Below, piece after piece: positions 3,931 through 61,471 of a DNA stretch of 61,471 nt (its first letter is position 1; each line of letters starts with the position of its first letter). The stretch comes from Bacteriovoracia bacterium. Its GTDB lineage: Bacteria > Bdellovibrionota > UBA1018 > JBFWNL01. Made by a program: the position numbers and the translations under genes. The stretch covers positions 1 through 61,471 of the forward strand of contig JBFWNL010000014.1 in NCBI GenBank assembly GCA_050251055.1, given 5' to 3'. The notes under the pieces are model-generated. The model worked only from the letters and a program-made list of their open reading frames with translations. It was not told the origin of the DNA and searched no databases.

Positions 3931-4965
3931 TCAGCTCCCTAATACAAAGTAGTTGTACCGATACTCCTGACAACGGTTATAGGGATAGTCGTTATTATTC
4001 CCGTCGTGACAGTAAATCCGGAATCGGACCTCGGTCGCGGTAATCGCTTCGAGTTCGCAAGTCATGTGGCCCCAGGCACCCCAGCGCCCGACCTGACGAG
4101 TCGCACAGTAGGCAATCTTCGGGTTGAATCCCGCCGGGACGGTCACCCGTCTCACGCGATACTGGCCGCCAAGCCCTGCCCCTTCCGTGTGTAGATTTCC
4201 GTCTAGCGGGCCCGAAAGCGCTCGCAAACCCGGGGCGGGAGCGCAATCGGGTTGGCCATTCGGCAAGATTCCTTTCATTACTCCCGTCGCGCAGCTGACC
4301 GGAGCGGGGGGCACCACGCAGCGAGGCGTGCGATTTTCATCATAAGCACCGCCCAGATCCTGGCATAGCTGCGGTGCCGAATCCCTCCCCACGCACCCCT
4401 CCACCTGCACCCGGTCCGTCGAAATCGATTTCGTCTTGAGTACGAGCGGGATCGCTTCGGCGATAAGCCGATTTCCCAGGGAGTTCGGACGCTCCATGGA
4501 AAGGCTTAGCTGTCCGAGCCACTGATTCTGGGAAAACTTCTCCACCGACTGAAGCGTGATCTGCTTCACCACCGCCCCCGAATTCAACGCCCGGTTCACT
4601 TCCGCTAAACTCCGACCCGACGAAGCCCCCGAGCTTCCCGGCAAGTAGATGCCGGAAAAATTTAGGGTGGACGACTTGCTCTCACTTTTTTTTCCGTCCG
4701 TGGTGATGAACTTCGGACTTTCCTTTGCAGACAACTCAAGTACGAGCGGAGCGCCAGGCGATGCCCCCTGGACTAGCGCCGTGCAGTTTTTAGGGTCCCC
4801 GAGAAACTGGCTCACGAGCCACCGAGTGTCGGTGATCTCCAAACGACTCTGGACGCTTTTTTGGCCTTTCAGGCTGTAAGAGACTCCGCTCGAAACGGCC
4901 AATATCCCGGTCGTCGCCACTCCGATCGCAACCAGTGCCTCGACCATGGAAAAACCCTGATTCAT
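3931..4965 (-). CDS. prepilin-type N-terminal cleavage/methylation protein with Cys-rich C-terminal domain
   Basis: MNQG|FSMVEALVAIGV class III signal (G-1, F+1, E+5); GAGGG RBS before ATG at 4965; the longer ORF start at 5235 overlaps the upstream gene. Confidence 0.8.
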   Translation of the reverse strand: MNQGFSMVEALVAIGVATTGILAVSSGVSYSLKGQKSVQSRLEITDTRWLVSQFLGDPKNCTALVQGASPGAPLVLELSAKESPKFITTDGKKSESKSSTLNFSGIYLPGSSGASSGRSLAEVNRALNSGAVVKQITLQSVEKFSQNQWLGQLSLSMERPNSLGNRLIAEAIPLVLKTKSISTDRVQVEGCVGRDSAPQLCQDLGGAYDENRTPRCVVPPAPVSCATGVMKGILPNGQPDCAPAPGLRALSGPLDGNLHTEGAGLGGQYRVRRVTVPAGFNPKIAYCATRQVGRWGAWGHMTCELEAITATEVRFRIYCHDGNNNDYPYNRCQEYRYNYFVLGS

Positions 4966-4990
4966 GGTGGTACCCTCTCGTCTTGAATTA

Positions 4991-5050
4991 AGCTCCCCCG
5001 AGGGATGGGATCGATCTGGGGGCGAGGGGCAAATTTCCCTCGGGGGAGCT
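4991..5050. repeat. perfect 15-bp inverted repeat with 30-nt loop
   Basis: AGCTCCCCCGAGGGA (4991-5005) / TCCCTCGGGGGAGCT (5036-5050), intergenic between lipoprotein stop and pilin-like start. Confidence 0.85.
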
Positions 5051-5674: not shown

Positions 5675-6538
5675 ATGATGCAGATTAAGAAAATTTCAGA
5701 GTATCAGGATTACCGCGAATTCTTGCGGGAATGGTTCGCCTACTCGCGCGCTCGCAATCGCAAGTTCTCGGTCCGCGCGGTCTCACGACTGGCGGGGTTC
5801 AAGTCGACCAGCCACCTTTATCTCGTGATCAACGGGAAGCGCAATCTCTCCGAAGCCGGGGCCACCCAAGTGGGGGAAGCTCTGCGGCTCTCGCAGTCGG
5901 ATCAGGACATCTTTCGCGCGCTCGTGCGTAAATCCAACGCGCGCGACGACGTCGAGAAAAATCAGGCGCACGATCAGTTAGAAGCGGTAAAAAAACGCGA
6001 CGTTTTCGAGAAAATTGAAGAAGCAAAGCTGAAGTTTTTTACCCACTGGTATTACGTGCCCATCCGAGAGTTGATCGGACTAGACGGCGCCGCGAAGGAC
6101 CCCTTGTCGATTTCCCAAGCGCTTAACCCCAGCGTCCCTGCCCACGAGGTCAAGGCGGCCTTAAAGAATCTAGAAGACCTGAATCTGATTAAAAAGGGTC
6201 CCACGGGCGAGTACGAGCGCACGCACCAATTTCTAACCACGGCCGAGCAGGTCCCTTCTGCTTTCGTGGTCCATTTTCACCGCGAGATGATTCGACTGGC
6301 CTCCGAAGCCATCGAACGGGTCCCGCGCCAAGAGCGCGACATCTCATCCGTGTCCCTCACGCTATCTAAAGATGGGGTCGATCGCATGCAGGAAGCCGTG
6401 AAGCGCTTTCGACGCGAGTTAGCAGAAATATCCAGTCAAGACGCGGCCGAAGCGGCCGACCGGGTTTACCAAGTCAATATTCAACTTTTCCCGCTAACGG
6501 GTAAGGTTTATCGAAACAAAAAGAAGGTGGCGGCATGA
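5675..6538 (+). CDS. TIGR02147 family protein (N-terminal HTH-like, C-terminal DUF4423-like)
   Basis: YQDYREFLREWF..FSVRAVSRLAGFKS..LVINGKRNLS; WYYVPIRELI; FHREMIRLA..RDISS..VYQVNIQLFPLT family hallmarks. Confidence 0.9.
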   Translation: MMQIKKISEYQDYREFLREWFAYSRARNRKFSVRAVSRLAGFKSTSHLYLVINGKRNLSEAGATQVGEALRLSQSDQDIFRALVRKSNARDDVEKNQAHDQLEAVKKRDVFEKIEEAKLKFFTHWYYVPIRELIGLDGAAKDPLSISQALNPSVPAHEVKAALKNLEDLNLIKKGPTGEYERTHQFLTTAEQVPSAFVVHFHREMIRLASEAIERVPRQERDISSVSLTLSKDGVDRMQEAVKRFRRELAEISSQDAAEAADRVYQVNIQLFPLTGKVYRNKKKVAA

Positions 6539-10996: not shown

Positions 10997-11680
10997 ATGA
11001 TTACACACTTTGAAATGATTGCCCGTATCGCCACAGGAGCCGCGCTCGGTGGAGTGATTGGTTTTGAGCGTGATATTCATGGACGACAGGCTGGACTTCG
11101 AACCCACGTCATTGTCGCTATGGCGTCAGCGACATTCATGGTTATTTCAAATCATTTTGCATTCTTTCAGGGCTACGATGCCGCTCGTCACGTTGAAGCC
11201 GATGTCTCCCGTATCGCTGCTTCGGTGGTTTCAGGCATAGGGTTTCTGGCCGGTGGAGCCATTCTTAAAACGGGTGCAACCATTCAAGGACTTACAACGG
11301 CTGCAGGCCTTTGGTTAGTGGCCGCAATCGGTTTATGCGCAGGCGGTGGGATGTATGTTGAAGGCGTGGCCGTTACAGCCATGGGCCTCATCGCTTTGAC
11401 GGTGTTTCGTCTTTTCGAAGACAAAAACGACAAACTCATTCGCAGACACGTTTCACTTCAGATGGAAGACGAGCCTAACTGTATATCAAAAATTATGGAT
11501 GCTTTGACAGCATCCGGAGTGAAGGTACCCGATTTTGATTACGAAAAAAAAATAGAATCCAAAACCCTGGGACTTACCTTCGACGTCCGCATTCCCGTCA
11601 ATATCGGCGTGCGTGGGCTCATCGAATTGTTAGAAAAACAATCGGGTGTTCGGCATGTTCATATAAAATTGCGGGATTGA
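10997..11680 (+). CDS. MgtC/SapB family membrane protein
   Basis: LGGVIGFER..AGLRTH, RIAASVVSGIGFLAGGAI, GLTTAAGLW; C-terminal ACT-like domain; GAGGA RBS. Confidence 0.93.
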   Translation: MITHFEMIARIATGAALGGVIGFERDIHGRQAGLRTHVIVAMASATFMVISNHFAFFQGYDAARHVEADVSRIAASVVSGIGFLAGGAILKTGATIQGLTTAAGLWLVAAIGLCAGGGMYVEGVAVTAMGLIALTVFRLFEDKNDKLIRRHVSLQMEDEPNCISKIMDALTASGVKVPDFDYEKKIESKTLGLTFDVRIPVNIGVRGLIELLEKQSGVRHVHIKLRD

Positions 11681-11794
11681 TCCTAAACCACTAGATTGAT
11701 GGATAAAGCCGGACCATAAACACTCAACATAGTGAGCACACTTGGGCTAGGACACAAAACGCGCCCCCGGCGTGTTTCGCTATTTCAACTCCAA

Positions 11795-11984
11795 CCATCT
11801 CTAATACTCCAGCCGAGAACTCCTCGGGCACGTTGATACGGCTCTAAAACTTTTTCTTTTGGGGGGATGTTCGCCCAAGGAAGGAAAAGCGAAGACAACC
11901 CATGGATGGGCGGCCCCAAAAAGAAAAAGTTTTAGAGCCGTATTAACGTGAGGGAGAATTATTTGCCTGGAGGATTAGAGATGG
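11795..11984. repeat. long imperfect palindrome (hairpin B) attached to a tRNA 3'-end copy
   Basis: Core arms 11829-11865 / 11914-11950 match at 35 of 37 nt; outer CCATCTCTAATACTCCAG / CTGGAGGATTAGAGATGG pairing; 48-nt loop. Confidence 0.9.
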
Positions 11985-12002
11985 CTGGGGTGCTAGGATT
12001 CG
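11982..12002 (-). repeat. exact 21-bp duplicate of the tRNA-Gln 3' end (att-like)
   Basis: TGGCTGGGGTGCTAGGATTCG identical at 11982-12002 and 12266-12286. Confidence 0.92.
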
Positions 12003-12141
12003 CCTTCCGCTCTCAGCGCTACTCGCGCTTCGGCTGCAGGCCGGCCTCAGCCGCCACCCGCCAGCGGGTGCCCGGCGGCTTCCGCCTTTCGAATCCTAGC
12101 CTAGGGTACGAAATGCTCCGCATTTCTCCATCACATACCAA

Positions 12142-12268
12142 CCAATTCTGCCTCATTCTAAAAATATAAAGTCATGAGGGTGTCCTCGCCCATGGAGGGA
12201 AAAAAGAGGTCAAGCGCATGGATGCGCGTCCCTCATGACTTTTTATTTTTAGAATGAGGCAGAATTGG
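12142..12268. repeat. long near-perfect palindrome (hairpin A) starting at the tRNA CCA
   Basis: Arms 12142-12180 / 12230-12268 match at 38 of 39 nt; 49-nt loop. Confidence 0.92.
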
Positions 12269-12341
12269 CTGGGGTGCTAGGATTCGAACCTAGACATGGC
12301 GGAATCAAAATCCGCTAGCTTAGCCATTTGCCGACACCCCA
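12266..12341 (-). tRNA. tRNA-Gln (anticodon TTG)
   Basis: TGGGGTG/CACCCCA acceptor stem, GCGGA-TTTTGAT-TCCGC anticodon arm, GGTTCGAATCC T-arm, encoded CCA; 76 nt. Confidence 0.96.
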
Positions 12342-12395
12342 ACCTAACGAACTTTATTTAGGTAACACGATTTTTCGGGCACAAAAAGGGCGGAT

Positions 12396-12719
12396 TTAGC
12401 CGTCCCGTTTTTCTTCGAGACCGTCGTTGTCGTGGGCGCTGATGGGCAGGGCCTTTCCCCCGGTCCGTTTGATTTCGGCGAGGTACGCGTTCAGGATCTG
12501 CTCTTCCATCTGGCTGCGGGTACTTTGATTGAGGGGATGGGCGACGTCTTTATAACTGCCGTCTTTGCGCTTTTTGCTAGGCATCGCCACGAAAAGGCCC
12601 GTATTGCCGTTGATGATCTTTAGATCACGAACCACGAAGCAGTTATCCAATACGATCGTGACATAGGCTTTTAACTTGTCTTCATCGACCGGAAAAATCT
12701 TAACTTCGGTAATATCCAT
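12396..12719 (-). CDS. spoVG: SpoVG family nucleic-acid-binding regulator
   Basis: MDITEVKIFPV..LKAYVTIVLDNCFVVRDLKII..GLFVAMPSKK..YKDVAHPLN. Confidence 0.95.
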   Translation of the reverse strand: MDITEVKIFPVDEDKLKAYVTIVLDNCFVVRDLKIINGNTGLFVAMPSKKRKDGSYKDVAHPLNQSTRSQMEEQILNAYLAEIKRTGGKALPISAHDNDGLEEKRDG

Positions 12720-55035: not shown

Positions 55036-55596
55036 TTAGAGAAGTTCCAGGCTTTTTACGGTAGTCGACGCCGGTAGGCTACCGACCTGAACCGGCGCGA
55101 CTTTCGGCGCGCCCGCCTGCGCGGCGGCAGCGCCACGCTGATTGGCCTGAATCGTCATCAGGTGCGTGCGCAGCTCCTTGAACATCGGCTGCTTGAGCAC
55201 GTACTCGTTTTCCTGGAGCACGACCTGCTTGGCGATCTGATCGCGCAAGTTGATCACGAGCGGTGCCTTCAGGTTCGCGGTCATCTGCGAGATGTCGTTC
55301 GGAATCGTGAGGATGCTGAGCACAGCCGCTTCCTTCACGTCTTTTAAACGCAGCTCGCGTAGATCGGCGGAAGAAAGATTCACGGTGTAGCGTTGCGTGA
55401 AAACCTTGGGTTCCAAGACCGGGAAGGCGAGCTTCGGGTCCTGCAATGATTGCATCCAGAGGATGAGCGTCTCATCGCCTGGGTCGACTAAACAAAAATC
55501 CGTGTATTCTGGAAAACCGAGCACGCCGAACGGCAACTGAATGCGCTCCGTGCTTTCTATCGTGAGCCGTCCAAAACGTCCTGTTTCTATGATCAC
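55036..55596 (-). CDS. fliW: flagellar assembly factor FliW (CsrA antagonist)
   Basis: T.RFG, GVLGF, WMQS, MTANLKAPLVIN..AKQVVL; GGGAG RBS before GTG 55596. Confidence 0.95.
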   Translation of the reverse strand: MIIETGRFGRLTIESTERIQLPFGVLGFPEYTDFCLVDPGDETLILWMQSLQDPKLAFPVLEPKVFTQRYTVNLSSADLRELRLKDVKEAAVLSILTIPNDISQMTANLKAPLVINLRDQIAKQVVLQENEYVLKQPMFKELRTHLMTIQANQRGAAAAQAGAPKVAPVQVGSLPASTTVKSLELL

Positions 55597-55643
55597 GCTC
55601 AACTCCCTAACCCCAATCACACCCCCCGATGTAGGAAAGCAGA

Positions 55644-55868
55644 TTAGTTCTTCAAAATCTTCGTCATCTGACTGAGCTCCGCCGGGGCTTTTACGGCTTC
55701 CTTATTCTGCTCCTGAATAGCCGTATACACTTCCTCGCGGTGAATCTTAGTCTCTTTAGGTGCTTGGATGCCTAACCGAACTTGTTTGCCTTTGATCTGC
55801 ACCACCACAATCTTGATATGATCGTCGATTGCGATGCTTTCACCCAGCTTCCGGGTTAATACTAACAT
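55644..55868 (-). CDS. csrA: carbon storage regulator CsrA
   Basis: MLVLTRKLGESIAI..VRLGIQAPK..IHREEVY. Confidence 0.97.
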   Translation of the reverse strand: MLVLTRKLGESIAIDDHIKIVVVQIKGKQVRLGIQAPKETKIHREEVYTAIQEQNKEAVKAPAELSQMTKILKN

Positions 55869-55975
55869 AGAATCTCCATCTCCACCTAACGACGCGTAGT
55901 CCTTTACCGAGACCCTTCAATAATATAACGCGATGCTACTGGCAACCTTTTCTCCCCCATTATAATGAGGGCCTA

Positions 55976-57004
55976 TTACCTGAGAAAATCCATCAACGTT
56001 GGCTGGACCAACCGCTTCGAGCTGGATAAAACACTATTCAAAACCGACTCTTCCTTAGCAATCTCTGTCATGACGTGGGCCATGTCCGCGTCCTCGAGCT
56101 GAGACGTCAGCTCGGCATTCGTCAGGTTATGACGCTCCATCGCCTTCAGGGACCCCTGCAGCCCTTGCACGCGCGAACCTACTCGAGAACGCGTAGCGAC
56201 GATATTGGCGTGGATCTGGTCGAAGCGCTCCAAGGTATCCCGGATCGCTCCCAAGTCCCCCGTAAGCAGGGCGATACGTAGATTTTGGAGCTCATTGAAT
56301 ACGTTCGCGTTCTGCTCGCCCATGGGCGAAAGCGACTGACTGGTCTCGAGCGACCCGCCCGTGGTGGTAGCTGGCGCCCGGGCACTGTCCCCGGTGTCCA
56401 TCGGTTCGCCATTCTCGTCTACGCCCTTGAGCCGGCGGAAGTCCGCCGAGGTCTTGGGATTCGTGTTGAACGCTTCGATGCCGGGCACGTTCATGCTGAT
56501 GAAAACGTCCTTGCCGATCTCGACCATCATCTGCCCGTCGTCGCCGACGAACTGCCCGTCCTCGTTCACGGACGGGCGATGGGTTTTGTAACCCGAGAAC
56601 AAGTAGCGATCGCCGATCTTGGTGTTCGCGTCGGCCACGGCACGCTTGAAAAGCTGATTCACTTCTTCGGCCACGCCCAAGCGAGTTTCGTCGGTCGAGC
56701 TCGCACCGCTGGCTTGACCGATGGCGATCTCTTTTGCGCGCATCACGACTTCCGACAGGTCATCGAGGGCGTGGTCGGCGTTATTCAAGAAAGCTTCGGC
56801 AAGTTTCGCGTTGGCGAGGTATTGATCGTTGTTCACCTTGTCCGTCCTCACTTCGAGCACTTTGGCCGATCCGATCGGATTGTCCGAAGGCACGTTGAGC
56901 TTCTTCATGGTGGACGCCTGGTTCTGGAACTTCTCCATTCGGCTTTTCGCCTTATGGACCGTATCGCGTACGGTGTTGAAGCTCGTGTTCTGCGTCACTC
57001 TCAT
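55976..57004 (-). CDS. flgL: flagellar hook-associated protein 3
   Basis: MRVTQN..PSDNP, RYLFSGYKT, QPTLMDFLR. Confidence 0.95.
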   Translation of the reverse strand: MRVTQNTSFNTVRDTVHKAKSRMEKFQNQASTMKKLNVPSDNPIGSAKVLEVRTDKVNNDQYLANAKLAEAFLNNADHALDDLSEVVMRAKEIAIGQASGASSTDETRLGVAEEVNQLFKRAVADANTKIGDRYLFSGYKTHRPSVNEDGQFVGDDGQMMVEIGKDVFISMNVPGIEAFNTNPKTSADFRRLKGVDENGEPMDTGDSARAPATTTGGSLETSQSLSPMGEQNANVFNELQNLRIALLTGDLGAIRDTLERFDQIHANIVATRSRVGSRVQGLQGSLKAMERHNLTNAELTSQLEDADMAHVMTEIAKEESVLNSVLSSSKRLVQPTLMDFLR

Positions 57005-57031
57005 GATTTAGCCGTCATCCCCTTCTTTTGG

Positions 57032-58453
57032 CTATCTCTTCAAATCCAACACCGTTTTAAGCATCTCGTCGGCGACAGCGATGACCTTCGCCGAAGCGTC
57101 GAATGAATGCTGGAACTCGAGCAGATTCGCCGTTTCCTCATCAATAGAAACGTTCGAGATCTGATCCCGGATCTTATCCAGCTGGGTCATGATGCTTTTT
57201 TGCTGGTTCAGGTCGTCGCGATTGCGCGCGGTTACCACACCGATATCGCTGACGATCGAGTTATACCAGTCGTCCATGGTCGCCTTGCCATCGTTCATCA
57301 GGCGCATACTCTGAATGCCCGAGATGGCAATCGCGATGCGATTGTCGCCCGGAGAATCGGGTTGGGCGGCCGTCGCGATGTTGTTCGTGCTGGCCAAGAT
57401 GTCGTCCGATAGCCCGAAGTATTCCGCCGCGCGGAATTTTTCCGTCTGAGGTTTGAAAAAATCTATTCCGGTCACGCCGTCGCGGGTCAATCCTTGGCGG
57501 TGAATGGCGTTCACCGATTCGGTGATGCCAAACGCGAGATCATCCATGCGGCTTAGGATCGTGCCCAAGGTCTGGTCGCGCACTTCCACCAGAGCGCCGA
57601 GCTTGCCCCCCTTGATCACGTGGGTGACGTTCGAGTTGGCCGAGGAGCTGCTATAGATATCGAGGGCGTTTTCGGGCTTACCGTCGTCGTCCCGCGGGCT
57701 ACGCTGCACGTTGAACTGCTCCGCCTTGGGACCGGTGACCAATGGCCCGGCGCCTACGATATTGATCGTAACGGACCCGTTCTTGGATTTATGCACGGAT
57801 ACGTCCATGTAGCTGGCGAGCTTCTTAACCGCGAGGTCGCGCTGATCGAGCAAATCGTTGGGCGAGCCGCCGCCGATCTCGAGCTGCAGGATCTTTTGGT
57901 TCATGTTCGCGATTTGGTCCGCGAGCTGATTTACCTCACGGGTGTAGCCTTCGATTCGGTTGTCGATATGGCGGCGAACATCGTCCACCTCGCCGCGCAT
58001 GCGCTTGAAGTCGGAGGTCATCGCGTTCGTCGCCTCGCGAACGGACTGGCGGATGGCTTCGCTGTTAGGATCGTTGGCGAGCTGGCGAAACTCGTTAAAA
58101 AACTTGGCCATGAGACGATTCAAGCCTTCGCCATTCATCTCGTTGAAAATATCTTCCGTCTGACGGAGGGATAGGTCTTTCTCCTCCATGAACTGCAGCG
58201 AACGGTTTCCGTTGCGAATCTGCTTATCGAGGTATTCGTCGTTGATGCGGCTGACGCGCGCGATCTGCGTGCCGCGCCCGATAAAACCTTTATAACCTTG
58301 ATTTGCCGTCGGCTCCTGCGTTTCGAGCTCCACGCGCTGGCGGTTGTAGCCTTCCGTATTGGCGTTGGCGATGTTGTGACCGGTCGTGCCGATGGCGGAG
58401 CGAGCCGCCATCATGCCGGAACGACCTGTTAACATCACATTCGGAAGACCCAT
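57032..58453 (-). CDS. flgK: flagellar hook-associated protein 1
   Basis: TGHNIANANTEGYNRQR, PNDLLDQRD, VSIDEETANL..ASAKVI. Confidence 0.96.
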   Translation of the reverse strand: MGLPNVMLTGRSGMMAARSAIGTTGHNIANANTEGYNRQRVELETQEPTANQGYKGFIGRGTQIARVSRINDEYLDKQIRNGNRSLQFMEEKDLSLRQTEDIFNEMNGEGLNRLMAKFFNEFRQLANDPNSEAIRQSVREATNAMTSDFKRMRGEVDDVRRHIDNRIEGYTREVNQLADQIANMNQKILQLEIGGGSPNDLLDQRDLAVKKLASYMDVSVHKSKNGSVTINIVGAGPLVTGPKAEQFNVQRSPRDDDGKPENALDIYSSSSANSNVTHVIKGGKLGALVEVRDQTLGTILSRMDDLAFGITESVNAIHRQGLTRDGVTGIDFFKPQTEKFRAAEYFGLSDDILASTNNIATAAQPDSPGDNRIAIAISGIQSMRLMNDGKATMDDWYNSIVSDIGVVTARNRDDLNQQKSIMTQLDKIRDQISNVSIDEETANLLEFQHSFDASAKVIAVADEMLKTVLDLKR

Positions 58454-58459
58454 GGATCG

Positions 58460-58987
58460 CTAGACCTCCTTGCTAATCAAACGGGCTTCGTTCGCCCCGC
58501 CGGCCTTCGTTACCCCGCCGGACGTATACGTATTCGCCTGCGGCTTGCTTTCACCCAGCACGTTTTTCTTCATCTGACGGATATGCGTGAGCGAGTTTTC
58601 GACGAGCTTCTGATTTTCCTGATTCTGCTCGGTGATGCGCTCGATGAGGATCACCAGGGTGTTGTAGGCGCTACGCAGCTTTTCGGCCAACGGTTGATCG
58701 TGGCCTTGCACCAGGATCACCAAGTTCGGGAGCGAAAGCTCCGCGCGGGGTTTGCGATAGGCCAGGGCGAGCTCGGCGATCAGCGCCAGTCGCTGCGCTT
58801 CGGCCTGCTGCACGCCGCTGATGAGCGCTTCCTTCGCGAAGGTGCATTCCTGAATGCCTTTCACCTTCGCCTCGATGAGCGCGTTCTTCTCGAGACGCAC
58901 GCAATCGAGCAGCTGGCGATGCAAGCCGATGAGTTTCTGCAGGACTTGCCAAAGATTTTGATTGAGGGATTCTAGTTTTTGTTCCAC
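58460..58987 (-). CDS. flgN: flagellar export chaperone FlgN
   Basis: Helical; NQENQKLVENSL..TY; position between flgM and flgK. Confidence 0.85.
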   Translation of the reverse strand: MEQKLESLNQNLWQVLQKLIGLHRQLLDCVRLEKNALIEAKVKGIQECTFAKEALISGVQQAEAQRLALIAELALAYRKPRAELSLPNLVILVQGHDQPLAEKLRSAYNTLVILIERITEQNQENQKLVENSLTHIRQMKKNVLGESKPQANTYTSGGVTKAGGANEARLISKEV

Positions 58988-59087
58988 GCGAGCAATCCTC
59001 CTTGATTGCTAAACGAGGCGACACTTACTTCGGACTGTCGACCCCGGCCCTCCTGGCAAGGATCCCAATCCCGTCCCGGTCTGGGCT

Positions 59088-59420
59088 CTAGCCCAGCTCG
59101 GCCGTCTTCAAATGCTCGTCCACCATGCGATCCGCGATCGCCTCTGGCTTCACGTTGTATTCTTTGTTGGCGATGCGGCGCTTGAGCTCGGCGATCTTGT
59201 CTTCACGCACGTCTGCCGCGTTCGACGCCACCTCTTTAGCCAAAGCCATTTCCTTCGCGCGCGAGGAAATCTCCGTCTGCGCGGAACCAGAATCAATCTT
59301 GCTGGAAGTAAGTTTCTCCGCGGAAGACGCGGACTTGGCCTTGGCGGCCTCAGCGGCGCCCTTGGCGCGATTCGCTTCCGAACTCTGGACGTTCGCTGCG
59401 TGGTTATTCGTTACTTTCAT
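59088..59420 (-). CDS. flgM: anti-sigma28 factor FlgM
   Basis: EISS, DVREDKIAELKRRI..YNV..AIADRM. Confidence 0.92.
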   Translation of the reverse strand: MKVTNNHAANVQSSEANRAKGAAEAAKAKSASSAEKLTSSKIDSGSAQTEISSRAKEMALAKEVASNAADVREDKIAELKRRIANKEYNVKPEAIADRMVDEHLKTAELG

Positions 59421-59841
59421 CCGGTACCTCCTGTACTCGTGCCGCTGCTACCGGGGCCCTTGATCCACTGGGCCCCATCTTTTGATTGTAGCTGTTGGAT
59501 ACCAGATAAGCAATGACTTGGTCCGCTAAACCCACTCCGCCTTGCTTGGCCGCGCGCTGGGCCACGTCGGAGTCGAGCATGCTCTGATAGATTTTTGTCG
59601 CTGAGTTATCCATGCTCATGTCGTTATCCGGGACCGTTTTTCTCATGGCGCTCATCATGTAGTCCAGGAACATCGCCTCCATCCCTTCGGAAGCCTTCAC
59701 GATCTGGGGATCGAGCCGGCTCCGATCGATCTTTCCCATGACGCGGTTCATGGGCGTGCGGGCGTCGGTTTGGGCCGGCGCCGGCATGGAATTGACGGTG
59801 GGAACGGGCAGTTGCCGGCCCGGGGCGATCGGACCGGGCAT
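59404..59841 (-). CDS. flgJ: FlgJ-like rod-binding protein without muramidase domain
   Basis: EAMFLDYMMSAMRKTV..YQSMLD..GVGLAD. Confidence 0.85.
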   Translation of the reverse strand: MPGPIAPGRQLPVPTVNSMPAPAQTDARTPMNRVMGKIDRSRLDPQIVKASEGMEAMFLDYMMSAMRKTVPDNDMSMDNSATKIYQSMLDSDVAQRAAKQGGVGLADQVIAYLVSNSYNQKMGPSGSRAPVAAARVQEVPDESNE

Positions 59842-60122
59842 TACCCGTTCCCCCGTCTTGATGTGAAACGAGGACGATTGGCTTCCGTGCCATTCAACGT
59901 GCGAGACGAGCCAATTGAATCAAGCTTGGCAAAACCCACCATCCTAGCAGGCCGTTGTCCACGTCTTGTTTCCTGGAATTCGGCGCACCCCTGCGCCGAA
60001 GACTCGTTGATCGCATCGGACTGAGCATCATCCATGACGCTTTGCCCTTCGTTCCACACCAAACCTTCTTTCAAGCTGGGTCCCAAGAAATCGTCGATGA
60101 TGAAGTCTCCCCAACAGATCAC
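59841..60122 (-). CDS. small hypothetical protein between flgI and flgJ
   Basis: GTGA overlap with flgI stop and TAATG overlap with flgJ start. Confidence 0.45.
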   Translation of the reverse strand: MICWGDFIIDDFLGPSLKEGLVWNEGQSVMDDAQSDAINESSAQGCAEFQETRRGQRPARMVGFAKLDSIGSSRTLNGTEANRPRFTSRRGNG

Positions 60123-61213
60123 ATGACCTCCAGCTCGGCCTGCAAGGCGCCCGCGCGCTGCAGGGTTTGAAAAATCGCGGTTAAGTCCTTGGGCTGCACG
60201 CCCAAGGCGTTCAGTACCTTCACGAGATCCGCGACGGTCGCGATCCCTTTCATGAGGTTCACCTTGTCGAACTTTCTTTCTTTCTTATCGCCCTTGTTGT
60301 CACCCACTTCGATGGCGAGATCGCCGTGCGAAAAGGCCACCGGCGAAAGCGTGATCTGGGCGCCCATCACCACCGTGCCCGTGCGCTCGTTGAGCACGAC
60401 CTTGGCGCGGTTATCGACGTTCACCTGGATATTTTCGAGGGTCGCCAACAGCTCGACCGAACTGCCGTCGTAATTGAACGGGACAATCACGTCGATGGTG
60501 GCGCTGTCGTGCGCACTGGCGAACTTACCGCCTAATTCGGAGTTAATTAACGCGGTCACGCGAGCCGCCGTGGTGAAATCCGGATTATGCAGGGACAAGC
60601 GGAAGTTTTTCTTCGACGCGAAATCCACATCGAGATCCTTCTCAATCGTCGCCCCGGAAACAACACGGGCCACGGTAGGAAAGTTCTTAGACGAACCGTC
60701 GGCGACGGAGCCAATACTCACCGGACCTTGCGCCACGGCATACACGTTTTGATCCCCCGCGCGTAGTGGGGTCACGAGCAGCACGCCGCCCTCCAGGCTC
60801 GGCGAGTCGCCGATGGAGCTCACCGTCACGTCGATTTTATTTCCCACCCGTGAAAACGGCGGGAGCTTCGCGGTGACAATCACGGCCGCGGCATTCTTTG
60901 ACTTCACGCCCGTACCGTCTTTAATATCCAGGCCCAACTTACCAAAGAGGCGGCTCAGCGATTGGCTCGTCACGTCCGCGCTGGAATCGCCCGTGCCCTT
61001 TAAGCCCACGACGATGCCGTACCCAATGAGGATGTTTTCGCGCACGCCCTTCACGACGGCGATGTCTTTAAGCCGCGCCGCTACGCTCTCGCGTGGATAC
61101 GTCAGCACGAGCACGCTCGAAACCACAAGCAGTAGCCAAAACGCCGCGGAAATCGCCCGCCGGCCGAACTGATTGGTTATGCGTTTAGTTAAGCATTGAT
61201 AGACGGTATTCAT
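60119..61213 (-). CDS. flgI: flagellar P-ring protein
   Basis: ARLKDI..GVREN.LIGYGIVVGLKGTGD, KNAAAVIVTA.LPPF, PDFTTA, NERTGTVV, AGALQAEL. Confidence 0.97.
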   Translation of the reverse strand: MNTVYQCLTKRITNQFGRRAISAAFWLLLVVSSVLVLTYPRESVAARLKDIAVVKGVRENILIGYGIVVGLKGTGDSSADVTSQSLSRLFGKLGLDIKDGTGVKSKNAAAVIVTAKLPPFSRVGNKIDVTVSSIGDSPSLEGGVLLVTPLRAGDQNVYAVAQGPVSIGSVADGSSKNFPTVARVVSGATIEKDLDVDFASKKNFRLSLHNPDFTTAARVTALINSELGGKFASAHDSATIDVIVPFNYDGSSVELLATLENIQVNVDNRAKVVLNERTGTVVMGAQITLSPVAFSHGDLAIEVGDNKGDKKERKFDKVNLMKGIATVADLVKVLNALGVQPKDLTAIFQTLQRAGALQAELEVM

Positions 61214-61471
61214 ATAGCTTCCCGGAGTTAATGGTATCGGCGTCATCCACGTCGGCCGCTTTGGCGATGCCCACCATGGTCATCAAACGCGTGCTGCCGC
61301 GGTAAGGAACTCGCTTCGTCGAGCGGATCTTGTAATTTCCGTTCGGATAGCGCTCCAAAATCTCGGCCATAATGGTTTCGCCCGCGGCGAGCGTCACGTG
61401 CTTGGACACATCGACGTCGGCGTAAGTGGCCTTCGGTACGTCCACATCTGGCACTTCTTCCTTTTTCTTTT
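61185..61471 (-). CDS. flgH: flagellar L-ring protein, C-terminal part (5'-truncated by window)
   Basis: AEILERYPNGNYKIR..MVGI..DV..TINS; immediately upstream of flgI; frame open to window edge. Confidence 0.75.
   Translation of the reverse strand, partial: KKKEEVPDVDVPKATYADVDVSKHVTLAAGETIMAEILERYPNGNYKIRSTKRVPYRGSTRLMTMVGIAKAADVDDADTINSGKLYEYRLSMLN

Follow-up and report, generated by a model that had tools for sequence, protein, structure and literature searches.

Contig JBFWNL010000014.1 of a Bacteriovoracia bacterium (assembly GCA_050251055.1) was analyzed over positions 1 to 61,471, and this whole stretch of 61,471 nucleotides (nt) is hereafter called the window. Between mgtC and a lone tRNA-Gln gene, the window carries two long palindromes, elements A and B, each of which bears at its tip a pair of small hairpins whose loops contain GGA. 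We conclude that A and B are a divergent, tRNA-anchored variant of a known RNA family, TwoAYGGAY (RF01731). A reading of the DNA made without database searches (the sequence-only reading) had presented them as an undescribed system; this did not hold, as the architecture is that of RF01731 and the hypothesis that the family binds the CsrA protein is already in print (PMC4333381, in the part of the paper available). In the explanation that we favor, to which we give a probability of roughly 55%, A and B would be diverged repeats of the TwoAYGGAY class that act on the + strand as a CsrA decoy and belong to a subclass placed at tRNA ends, A having been inserted and the arms being maintained at the DNA level.

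Two long palindromes with homologous tips

Both palindromes are genuine and far exceed what chance would produce. The arms of A are 39 nt long with a single T.T mismatch and can be extended to 12138/12272 with one A.C mismatch, and in the right arm the three outermost pairs are contributed by the CCA of tRNA-Gln. Element B has inner arms of 37 nt with 2 mismatches and, in addition, outer arms (11791-11812 / 11967-11988) that are separated from the inner ones by an asymmetric middle (11813-11828 / 11951-11966); its distal end is CCAACCA and its proximal end is TGGCTGG, the latter being part of a tRNA 3' fragment. The arm lengths and mismatches are as the sequence-only reading had given them. 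Its observation that CCAACCA closes both palindromes distally was also correct, the heptamer lying at 12138-12144 in A and at 11791-11797 in B, opposite the tRNA-derived TGGCTGG.

The + strand of A folds with -79.0 kcal/mol (z -11.8) and that of B with -72.2 kcal/mol (z -9.4), and in both cases 0/200 shuffles were as good. The - strand of both elements folds equally well, with -82.4 kcal/mol (z -15.6) for A. The motifs TCTAAAA/TTTTAGA are present in both stems, a pattern found twice in the window with 0.00 occurrences expected. Beyond these motifs and CCAACCA, the arms of A and B cannot be aligned (206/1000 shuffles score as well), in agreement with the claim that they are unrelated save for short motifs.

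The tips are 79% identical, with 34/43 aligned positions the same, and 0/1000 shuffles score as well. Judged by this alignment, the two tips are homologous in sequence; the statement that the loops have the same architecture was correct, but understated the likeness. The loop motif of hairpin 2 is ATGGAT in both copies, and that of hairpin 1 is ATGGA in A and AAGGAA in B; the GGA triplets of the two loops are spaced 26 nt apart in A and 25 nt in B. On the alignment (A4), two compensatory double changes can be counted in register: the outer stem of hairpin 1 has C-G in A where B has T-A, and the second pair of hairpin 2 has G-C in A where B has C-G. The compensatory changes that had been read from the stems are borne out by these two, but not by the inner stem of hairpin 1, which is shifted in register between A and B and does not covary.

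Likeness to the TwoAYGGAY family

Element B matches RF01731 over the full length of the model (11822-11957, + strand, model positions 1-168) with 28.5 bits and an E-value of 0.02-0.04 for the 511-851 nt searched. The TwoAYGGAY motif was described by Weinberg et al. 2010 (PMC2864571). Rfam has placed RF01731 in a clan of Csr-Rsm protein-binding RNAs (PMC5753348), and binding of CsrA was proposed in 2015 by Gardner and Eldai, who found the loop motif to be conserved on one strand across phyla and to fit the CsrA site model (PMC4333381); both papers are cited here for the parts available. The accessible passages of a recent preprint describe an elongated basal stem in Bacillota, an extreme variation in copy number, and doublets, of which 68% in Pseudomonas are divergently oriented (bioRxiv 10.64898/2026.09.22.753630).

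Genome contigs were scanned with a pattern of three short motifs common to A and B, which returned at least 120 loci (L001-L120). Most of the matches listed are chance matches in A/T-rich genomes. Among the at least 120 loci, we recognized 10 (L003, L005, L009, L036, L053, L064, L068, L075, L090, and L119) as clear long palindromes whose tips carry two hairpins with GGA loops, and three further loci among the matches listed (L001, L058, and L106) are ambiguous. The number of clear elements is a judgement from the folds, as classification by minimum free energy fold is noisy and classification by gapless arms was too strict, missing bulged Clostridial copies. Within the matches listed, the clear elements belong to genomes of Gammaproteobacteria and Clostridia and to an unclassified genome bin. 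The gene context of eight elements elsewhere was intergenic in all cases with mixed orientations of the flanking genes, which does not support a simple terminator reading.

Among the matches listed, RF01731 scores were 50.0 bits for L005, which is above the gathering score, 30.3 bits for L075, and 25.0 bits for the match in L003; up to an E-value of 10, nothing was matched in L009, L036, L053, L064, and L119. The gathering score was exceeded by a second copy nearby in two loci, L003 at 49.2 bits and L068 at 45.0 bits. B thus falls in the score range of copies that stand beside accepted members.

Covariation in further copies, which the sequence-only reading had proposed to look for, was found for hairpin 2. 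In 14 pattern-derived sequences, aligned as fixed 22-nt windows in which the search pattern imposes the closing C-G pair, hairpin 2 had a covariation score of 0.494 versus 0.169 in shuffles (0/500 as high), and every slid control was lower. A MAFFT alignment of 11 whole elements misaligned the stems and was not used.

Some of the loci deserve mention in their own right. L003 (2226-2646) and L068 (39-457) each hold a Clostridial pair of TwoAYGGAY-type elements about 80 nt apart, the L003 pair being divergent. In both pairs one copy scores above the gathering score and the other below, and the pairs match the doublets described in the accessible part of the preprint. L064 (2461-2623) and L119 (261-423) are the same 163-nt element on two contigs of Clostridium brassicae, with flanks that differ by one base; this near-identity indicates a recent multi-copy repeat. 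At the edge of L040, otherwise a chance-match locus, lies a Clostridiales-1 RNA (RF01699, 84.1 bits, 4835-4996).

Anchoring at tRNA 3' ends

Both palindromes had been said to start exactly at the CCA end of a tRNA-Gln. This is true of A. On the other hand, B adjoins a 21-nt copy of the tRNA-Gln 3' end and not a tRNA gene, of which there is only one here; neither ARAGORN nor Rfam called a tRNA at 11982-12002. A decayed second tRNA-Gln gene behind B was considered and rejected, since the likeness ends at 21 nt (219/1000 shuffles score as well).

The 21-nt copy and the end of the gene (11982-12002 = 12266-12286) form a direct repeat that brackets A together with 12003-12137. It is the only direct repeat: the flanking heptamers CCAACCA / TGGCTGG are inverted, and no direct target-site duplication of the kind left by miniature inverted-repeat transposable elements (MITEs) was found. 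The perfection of the 21-nt repeat contrasts with cores that share 79% identity and with arms that are unrelated; by this reckoning, the tRNA end seems to have been duplicated long after A and B diverged. An 11-bp inverted repeat of T-arm sequence (11992-12002 / 12090-12100) encloses the G+C-rich segment within the bracketed DNA (12003-12087). The segment has fold z-scores of -2.1 and -1.2, no family match in Rfam, and no other copy in the window. A search for similar DNA in plasmids gave three matches, each of 28 nt and all within the tRNA part of the query, and a search in phages gave none.

A second case of anchoring was found in an unrelated contig, where the hairpin of L090 runs directly into tRNA-Val(TAC). 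Its arms are 84 nt long with 1 mismatch, and 34 nt of the tRNA-Val 3' end are mirrored on the far side. Just 2 tRNAs are present in the at least 120 loci listed (about 450 kb), the second one lying 1.3 kb from a chance match; given this scarcity, the abutment of L090 is not a coincidence. A, B, and L090 agree in two further respects: their GGA strand runs antisense to the tRNA, and their hairpin 1 has two tiers, with purines prevailing on its 3' side.

On these grounds A, B, and L090 may be regarded as a subclass located precisely at tRNA 3' ends, its arms mirroring the last tRNA bases. Anchoring at the tRNA 3' end, in two unrelated genomes, seems to be the new part of the finding; the six mentions of tRNA in the accessible passages of the preprint (10.64898/2026.09.22.753630) do not concern the placement of TwoAYGGAY. 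The sequence-only reading had offered a palindromic non-autonomous element targeting tRNA 3' ends as one of its two interpretations, and this gains support from L090 at tRNA-Val and from the 21-nt duplication that is perfect despite the divergence of A and B. We regard it as unlikely that the idea extends to its fullest form, in which A, B, and L090 would be non-coding mobile palindromes that insert or recombine at tRNA 3' ends, copy tRNA sequence into their arms, and carry a two-site CsrA decoy between tRNA genes.

Proposed mode of action and origin

In the explanation that we favor, a + strand transcript would display a pair of GGA hairpins, spaced by 25-26 nt, at the top of a stalk measuring about 40 bp. 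A single CsrA dimer could grip both hairpins, and the RNA would then serve as a decoy or modulator of the CsrA encoded in the window. Both elements have the layout of a candidate Csr decoy, with two loop GGA sites within bridging distance; a spacing rule for the GGA sites that one CsrA dimer can bridge was reportedly worked out by Mercante et al. in 2009. A structured RNA that presents paired CsrA sites on a stalk, the other interpretation of the sequence-only reading, is the published hypothesis for the family and appears plausible here. In the available part of PMC13443453, CsrA of B. bacteriovorus inhibited the expression of a hag (flagellin) reporter, and the hag leader contains two GGA-containing stem-loops that are bound by B. 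subtilis CsrA.

As to origin, A and 12003-12137 may have arrived beside a resident B via recombination inside the tRNA 3' end, starting from the T-loop, an event that would resemble integration at a tRNA att site. Integrative elements are said to recombine within the 3' ends of tRNA genes with att duplication (Williams 2002). The near-perfect arms would be kept, and lengthened into the tRNA, by a process at the DNA level and not by selection on RNA pairing alone. The lack of a G.U strand bias and the inverted pieces of tRNA fit such a process better. A candidate is template switching within quasi-palindromes, which could make the arms perfect and extend them into whichever flank is free to change; it has reportedly been described by Ripley and by Dutra and Lovett.

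Evidence against the favored explanation

Several observations weigh against this explanation. With regard to the family, the 28.5 bits of B are below the RF01731 gathering score of 43 and, by our estimate, would be insignificant at the scale of the whole window (E ~3), and neither A nor L090 has an RF01731 match at E up to 10. A search of the whole window with Rfam at gathering scores returned the tRNA only, the TwoAYGGAY match being seen only in the E-value mode. As the sequence-only reading had itself stated, a match to a described family removes the novelty; this is largely the case, but the match is sub-threshold in B and absent in A. A covariance model trained on just A and B (R1), another of its suggestions, recovered A and B but no further copy in the window with filters off, the next-best match being 15.6 bits (E 0.14) on the opposite strand of A. 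R1 had no significant match in L001-L100 or, with filters off, in L101-L120 plus nine clear elements; its best score among the other loci was 17.8 bits (E 0.25), from a model that is too narrow for testing family membership. Moreover, the scan pattern imposes 22 bases of likeness, and the retrieved loci are not independent of A and B. Because the RF01731 scores are below the threshold or absent, R1 recovers no relatives, and the 22 bases are forced, A and B are filed as a variant and not as a member of the family.

With regard to the decoy, both tip hairpins form in the minimum free energy fold of A, and the tip as drawn in the sequence-only reading is close to that minimum. In B, the two-hairpin tip reaches -9.0 kcal/mol versus a minimum of -10.7 kcal/mol, that is, 1.7 above it, with a pair probability of about 0.29. 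A consensus scan, the only kind of scan applied, recognized no sigma-70-like promoter on either strand of 11500-12500, which lends no support to transcription of the + strand; read-through from mgtC is possible. Bacteria with FliW antagonize CsrA by means of a protein, which lessens the need for an RNA decoy. The arms pair alike on both strands, and G.U pairs are not in excess on the + strand. With regard to mobility and anchoring, Pfam found no integrase, transposase, or reverse transcriptase in the 60 open reading frames (ORFs) scanned, there are only two copies and none further in the 61-kb window, and 9/10 clear elements elsewhere, among the matches listed, have no tRNA in their flanks.

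Alternative explanations

The palindromes might be purely selfish or recombinational elements at the DNA level, their loops bound, in single-stranded or cruciform DNA, by a recombinase or transposase that acts in trans and directs the element to tRNA 3' ends, with CsrA uninvolved and the GGA motifs coincidental. Such an element would agree with near-perfect Watson-Crick arms whose sequence is unrelated from one copy to the next, in contrast to the conserved tips, with arms that fold alike on both strands, with the perfect 21-nt duplication of the tRNA 3' end, and with the 34 nt of tRNA-Val included in the 84-nt arms of L090. The near-identical copies of L064 and L119 in one Clostridium genome, the doublets of L003 and L068, the absence of a promoter-like site in 11500-12500, and the extreme copy-number variation and doublets reported in the accessible passages of the preprint (10.64898/2026.09.22.753630) point the same way. 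We nevertheless place this alternative on the unlikely side. The 60 ORFs scanned include no transposase, integrase, or RAYT-like gene, the window holds two copies only, and the CCAACCA/TGGCTGG flanks are inverted where a direct target-site duplication is usual. In addition, the conservation of the loop motif on one strand across phyla, and its fit to the CsrA site model (PMC4333381, available part), count against this alternative.

A function on the - strand, where the hairpins would form a 3' trailer of tRNA-Gln, and of a former tRNA end, and would either terminate the tRNA transcript or signal its processing or stability, is quite improbable. In this alternative, A and B would be the versions of a tRNA-flanking element from two lineages, joined by tRNA integration. 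All three tRNA-anchored elements do start at CCA and are always antisense to the GGA strand, the distal UGGUUGG can pair with CCAGCCA of the tRNA via G.U in both A and B (A.C on the + strand), on either strand the inner stem gives way to T-rich tracts, and the - strand of A has the lowest fold energy given above. Against this, a terminator scan called no site within the elements, the conserved loop motif of the family is defined on the opposite strand, 9/10 of the clear elements elsewhere (among the matches listed) are not near any tRNA, and B follows a mere 21-nt fragment, which needs no terminator.

Chance palindromes with chance GGA loops are refuted: double GGA hairpins are no rarity by themselves, with a mean of 0.7 descriptor matches per shuffled window, but 0/200 shuffles fold as well, 0/1000 match the core similarity, the pattern occurs twice versus 0.00 expected, and the same architecture is found in other genomes.

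Genomic context

The studied interval is flanked by mgtC (10997-11680, + strand) and the tRNA-Gln(UUG) gene (12266-12341, - strand), after which spoVG and clpB follow, likewise on the - strand. The features are collected in Table 1. The presence of csrA and fliW in the window, which the sequence-only reading had noted, was confirmed with Pfam (5e-26 and 2.9e-36, respectively).

Table 1. Features of elements A and B, the tRNA-derived sequences around them, and the csrA-fliW pair.
Feature	Position	Strand	Basis and remarks
Element A, whole palindrome	12138-12272	+	Arms 12142-12180 / 12230-12268; 49-nt loop
Tip of A, 49 nt	12181-12229	+	Hairpin 1 CCC-ATGGA-GGG inside CCTC/GAGG; hairpin 2 GCGC-ATGGAT-GCGC
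Element B, whole palindrome	11791-11988	+	Inner arms 11829-11865 / 11914-11950; 48-nt loop
Tip of B, 48 nt	11866-11913	+	Hairpin 1 loop AAGGAA, purine-rich 3' side; hairpin 2 CCC-ATGGAT-GGG
Perfect copy of the tRNA-Gln 3' end, T-loop to CCA, 21 nt	11982-12002	-	21/21 identical to 12266-12286
G+C-rich segment, 85 nt, ~70% G+C	12003-12087	.	Composition; surroundings ~47% G+C
tRNA-Gln T-arm fragment, 13 nt, far side of A	12088-12100	+	13/13 inverted repeat; orientation opposite to the gene
tRNA-Gln, anticodon UUG, CCA encoded	12266-12341	-	ARAGORN; Rfam RF00005, 56.3 bits; 3' terminal A = 12266
fliW	55036-55620	-	Pfam FliW 2.9e-36; genomic context, outside the elements
csrA	55644-55868	-	Pfam CsrA 5e-26; genomic context, outside the elements; candidate protein partner of the GGA hairpins

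The two genes belong to a - strand cluster of late flagellar genes (55036-61246) that comprises flgI, a gene for a rod-binding protein, flgM, flgN, flgK, a gene for a flagellin-N-domain protein (flgL-like), csrA, and fliW; their position in a flagellar cluster is the FliW-CsrA partner arrangement. Between spoVG and tRNA-Gln lies a hairpin (12388-12405) that reads as a terminator on either strand; a separate promoter for tRNA-Gln is therefore probable in the 54 nt that precede the gene. A 73-amino-acid ORF at 11948-12169 was rejected as spurious, as it has no Pfam match and overlaps the palindrome arms. Elsewhere in the window, a protein with DUF4423 is encoded at 5675-6538 (Pfam E 3.5e-37); this family is frequent in Bdellovibrio and Fibrobacter.

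Significance

According to the parts of the literature available, TwoAYGGAY is a widespread orphan RNA family of which both the link to CsrA and the mobile-like spread are unexplained. If the favored explanation is true, a subclass at tRNA ends with a fresh duplication of such an end would be a place to catch the element moving, by comparing filled with empty sites and testing for excision. The elements also offer a simple two-site RNA for asking whether the CsrA of FliW-type bacteria has RNA decoys. Were the reading as mobile palindromes true, TwoAYGGAY would gain a concrete mechanism of mobility, and a regulatory RNA would be spreading as a tRNA-anchored element in bacteria with FliW-CsrA. 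If the link to tRNA is merely local history, the finding adds no more than a further pair of diverged copies to a motif already catalogued.

Comparison with known systems

The sponges of the Csr/Rsm system (CsrB, CsrC, RsmY, and RsmZ; clan CL00106) resemble A and B in presenting GGA in hairpin loops at a spacing that one CsrA dimer could bridge. In contrast to the sponges, A and B have two sites per element and not many, have no recognized promoter, and hold their sites within a perfect duplex of about 40 bp, and their host has the FliW-CsrA pair, in which control is by protein antagonism.

Elements that are integrated at tRNA genes by tyrosine integrases resemble A in that a perfect repeat of the tRNA 3' end flanks foreign-looking DNA (12003-12265). 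Unlike in such elements, the bracketed DNA is only about 263 nt long and encodes no integrase. Inverted tRNA fragments are found here as well, and att duplication offers no account of them.

REP/REPIN, Correia, ERIC, and the like are bacterial palindromic repeats or miniature inverted-repeat elements. As with these, the elements described here are intergenic and non-coding with long inverted repeats, and several copies or doublets are found in some genomes (L064/L119, L003, and L068). They differ from REP and MITE types in that the arm sequence varies between copies and just the tip and short motifs are conserved, and in that no ordinary direct target duplication and no cognate transposase were seen.

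The closest counterpart is TwoAYGGAY itself, whose two consecutive hairpins with loops of the A-Y-G-G-A-Y type on a shared long basal stem appear to have their equivalent in A and B. Like them, it has a stem that is A/T-rich near the tip, is intergenic, and occurs as doublets within 2 kb; B in addition aligns with the full-length model in the right orientation. A and B stand in tandem, whereas the preprint's accessible passages give a divergent orientation for 68% of the Pseudomonas doublets. The differences lie in the score, which is below gathering for B, with no match for A and L090; in the loop of hairpin 1, which deviates in A and B (ATGGA or AAGGAA); in the two-tiered form of hairpin 1, with a purine-rich, Shine-Dalgarno-like 3' side; and in the stems of the small hairpins, which are just 2-4 bp long. 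A and B also abut tRNA 3' ends and mirror tRNA sequence, a trait not found in the preprint passages available. In all, A and B resemble TwoAYGGAY and probably work in the same manner, and they are best filed as a divergent variant of that family rather than as a scored member.

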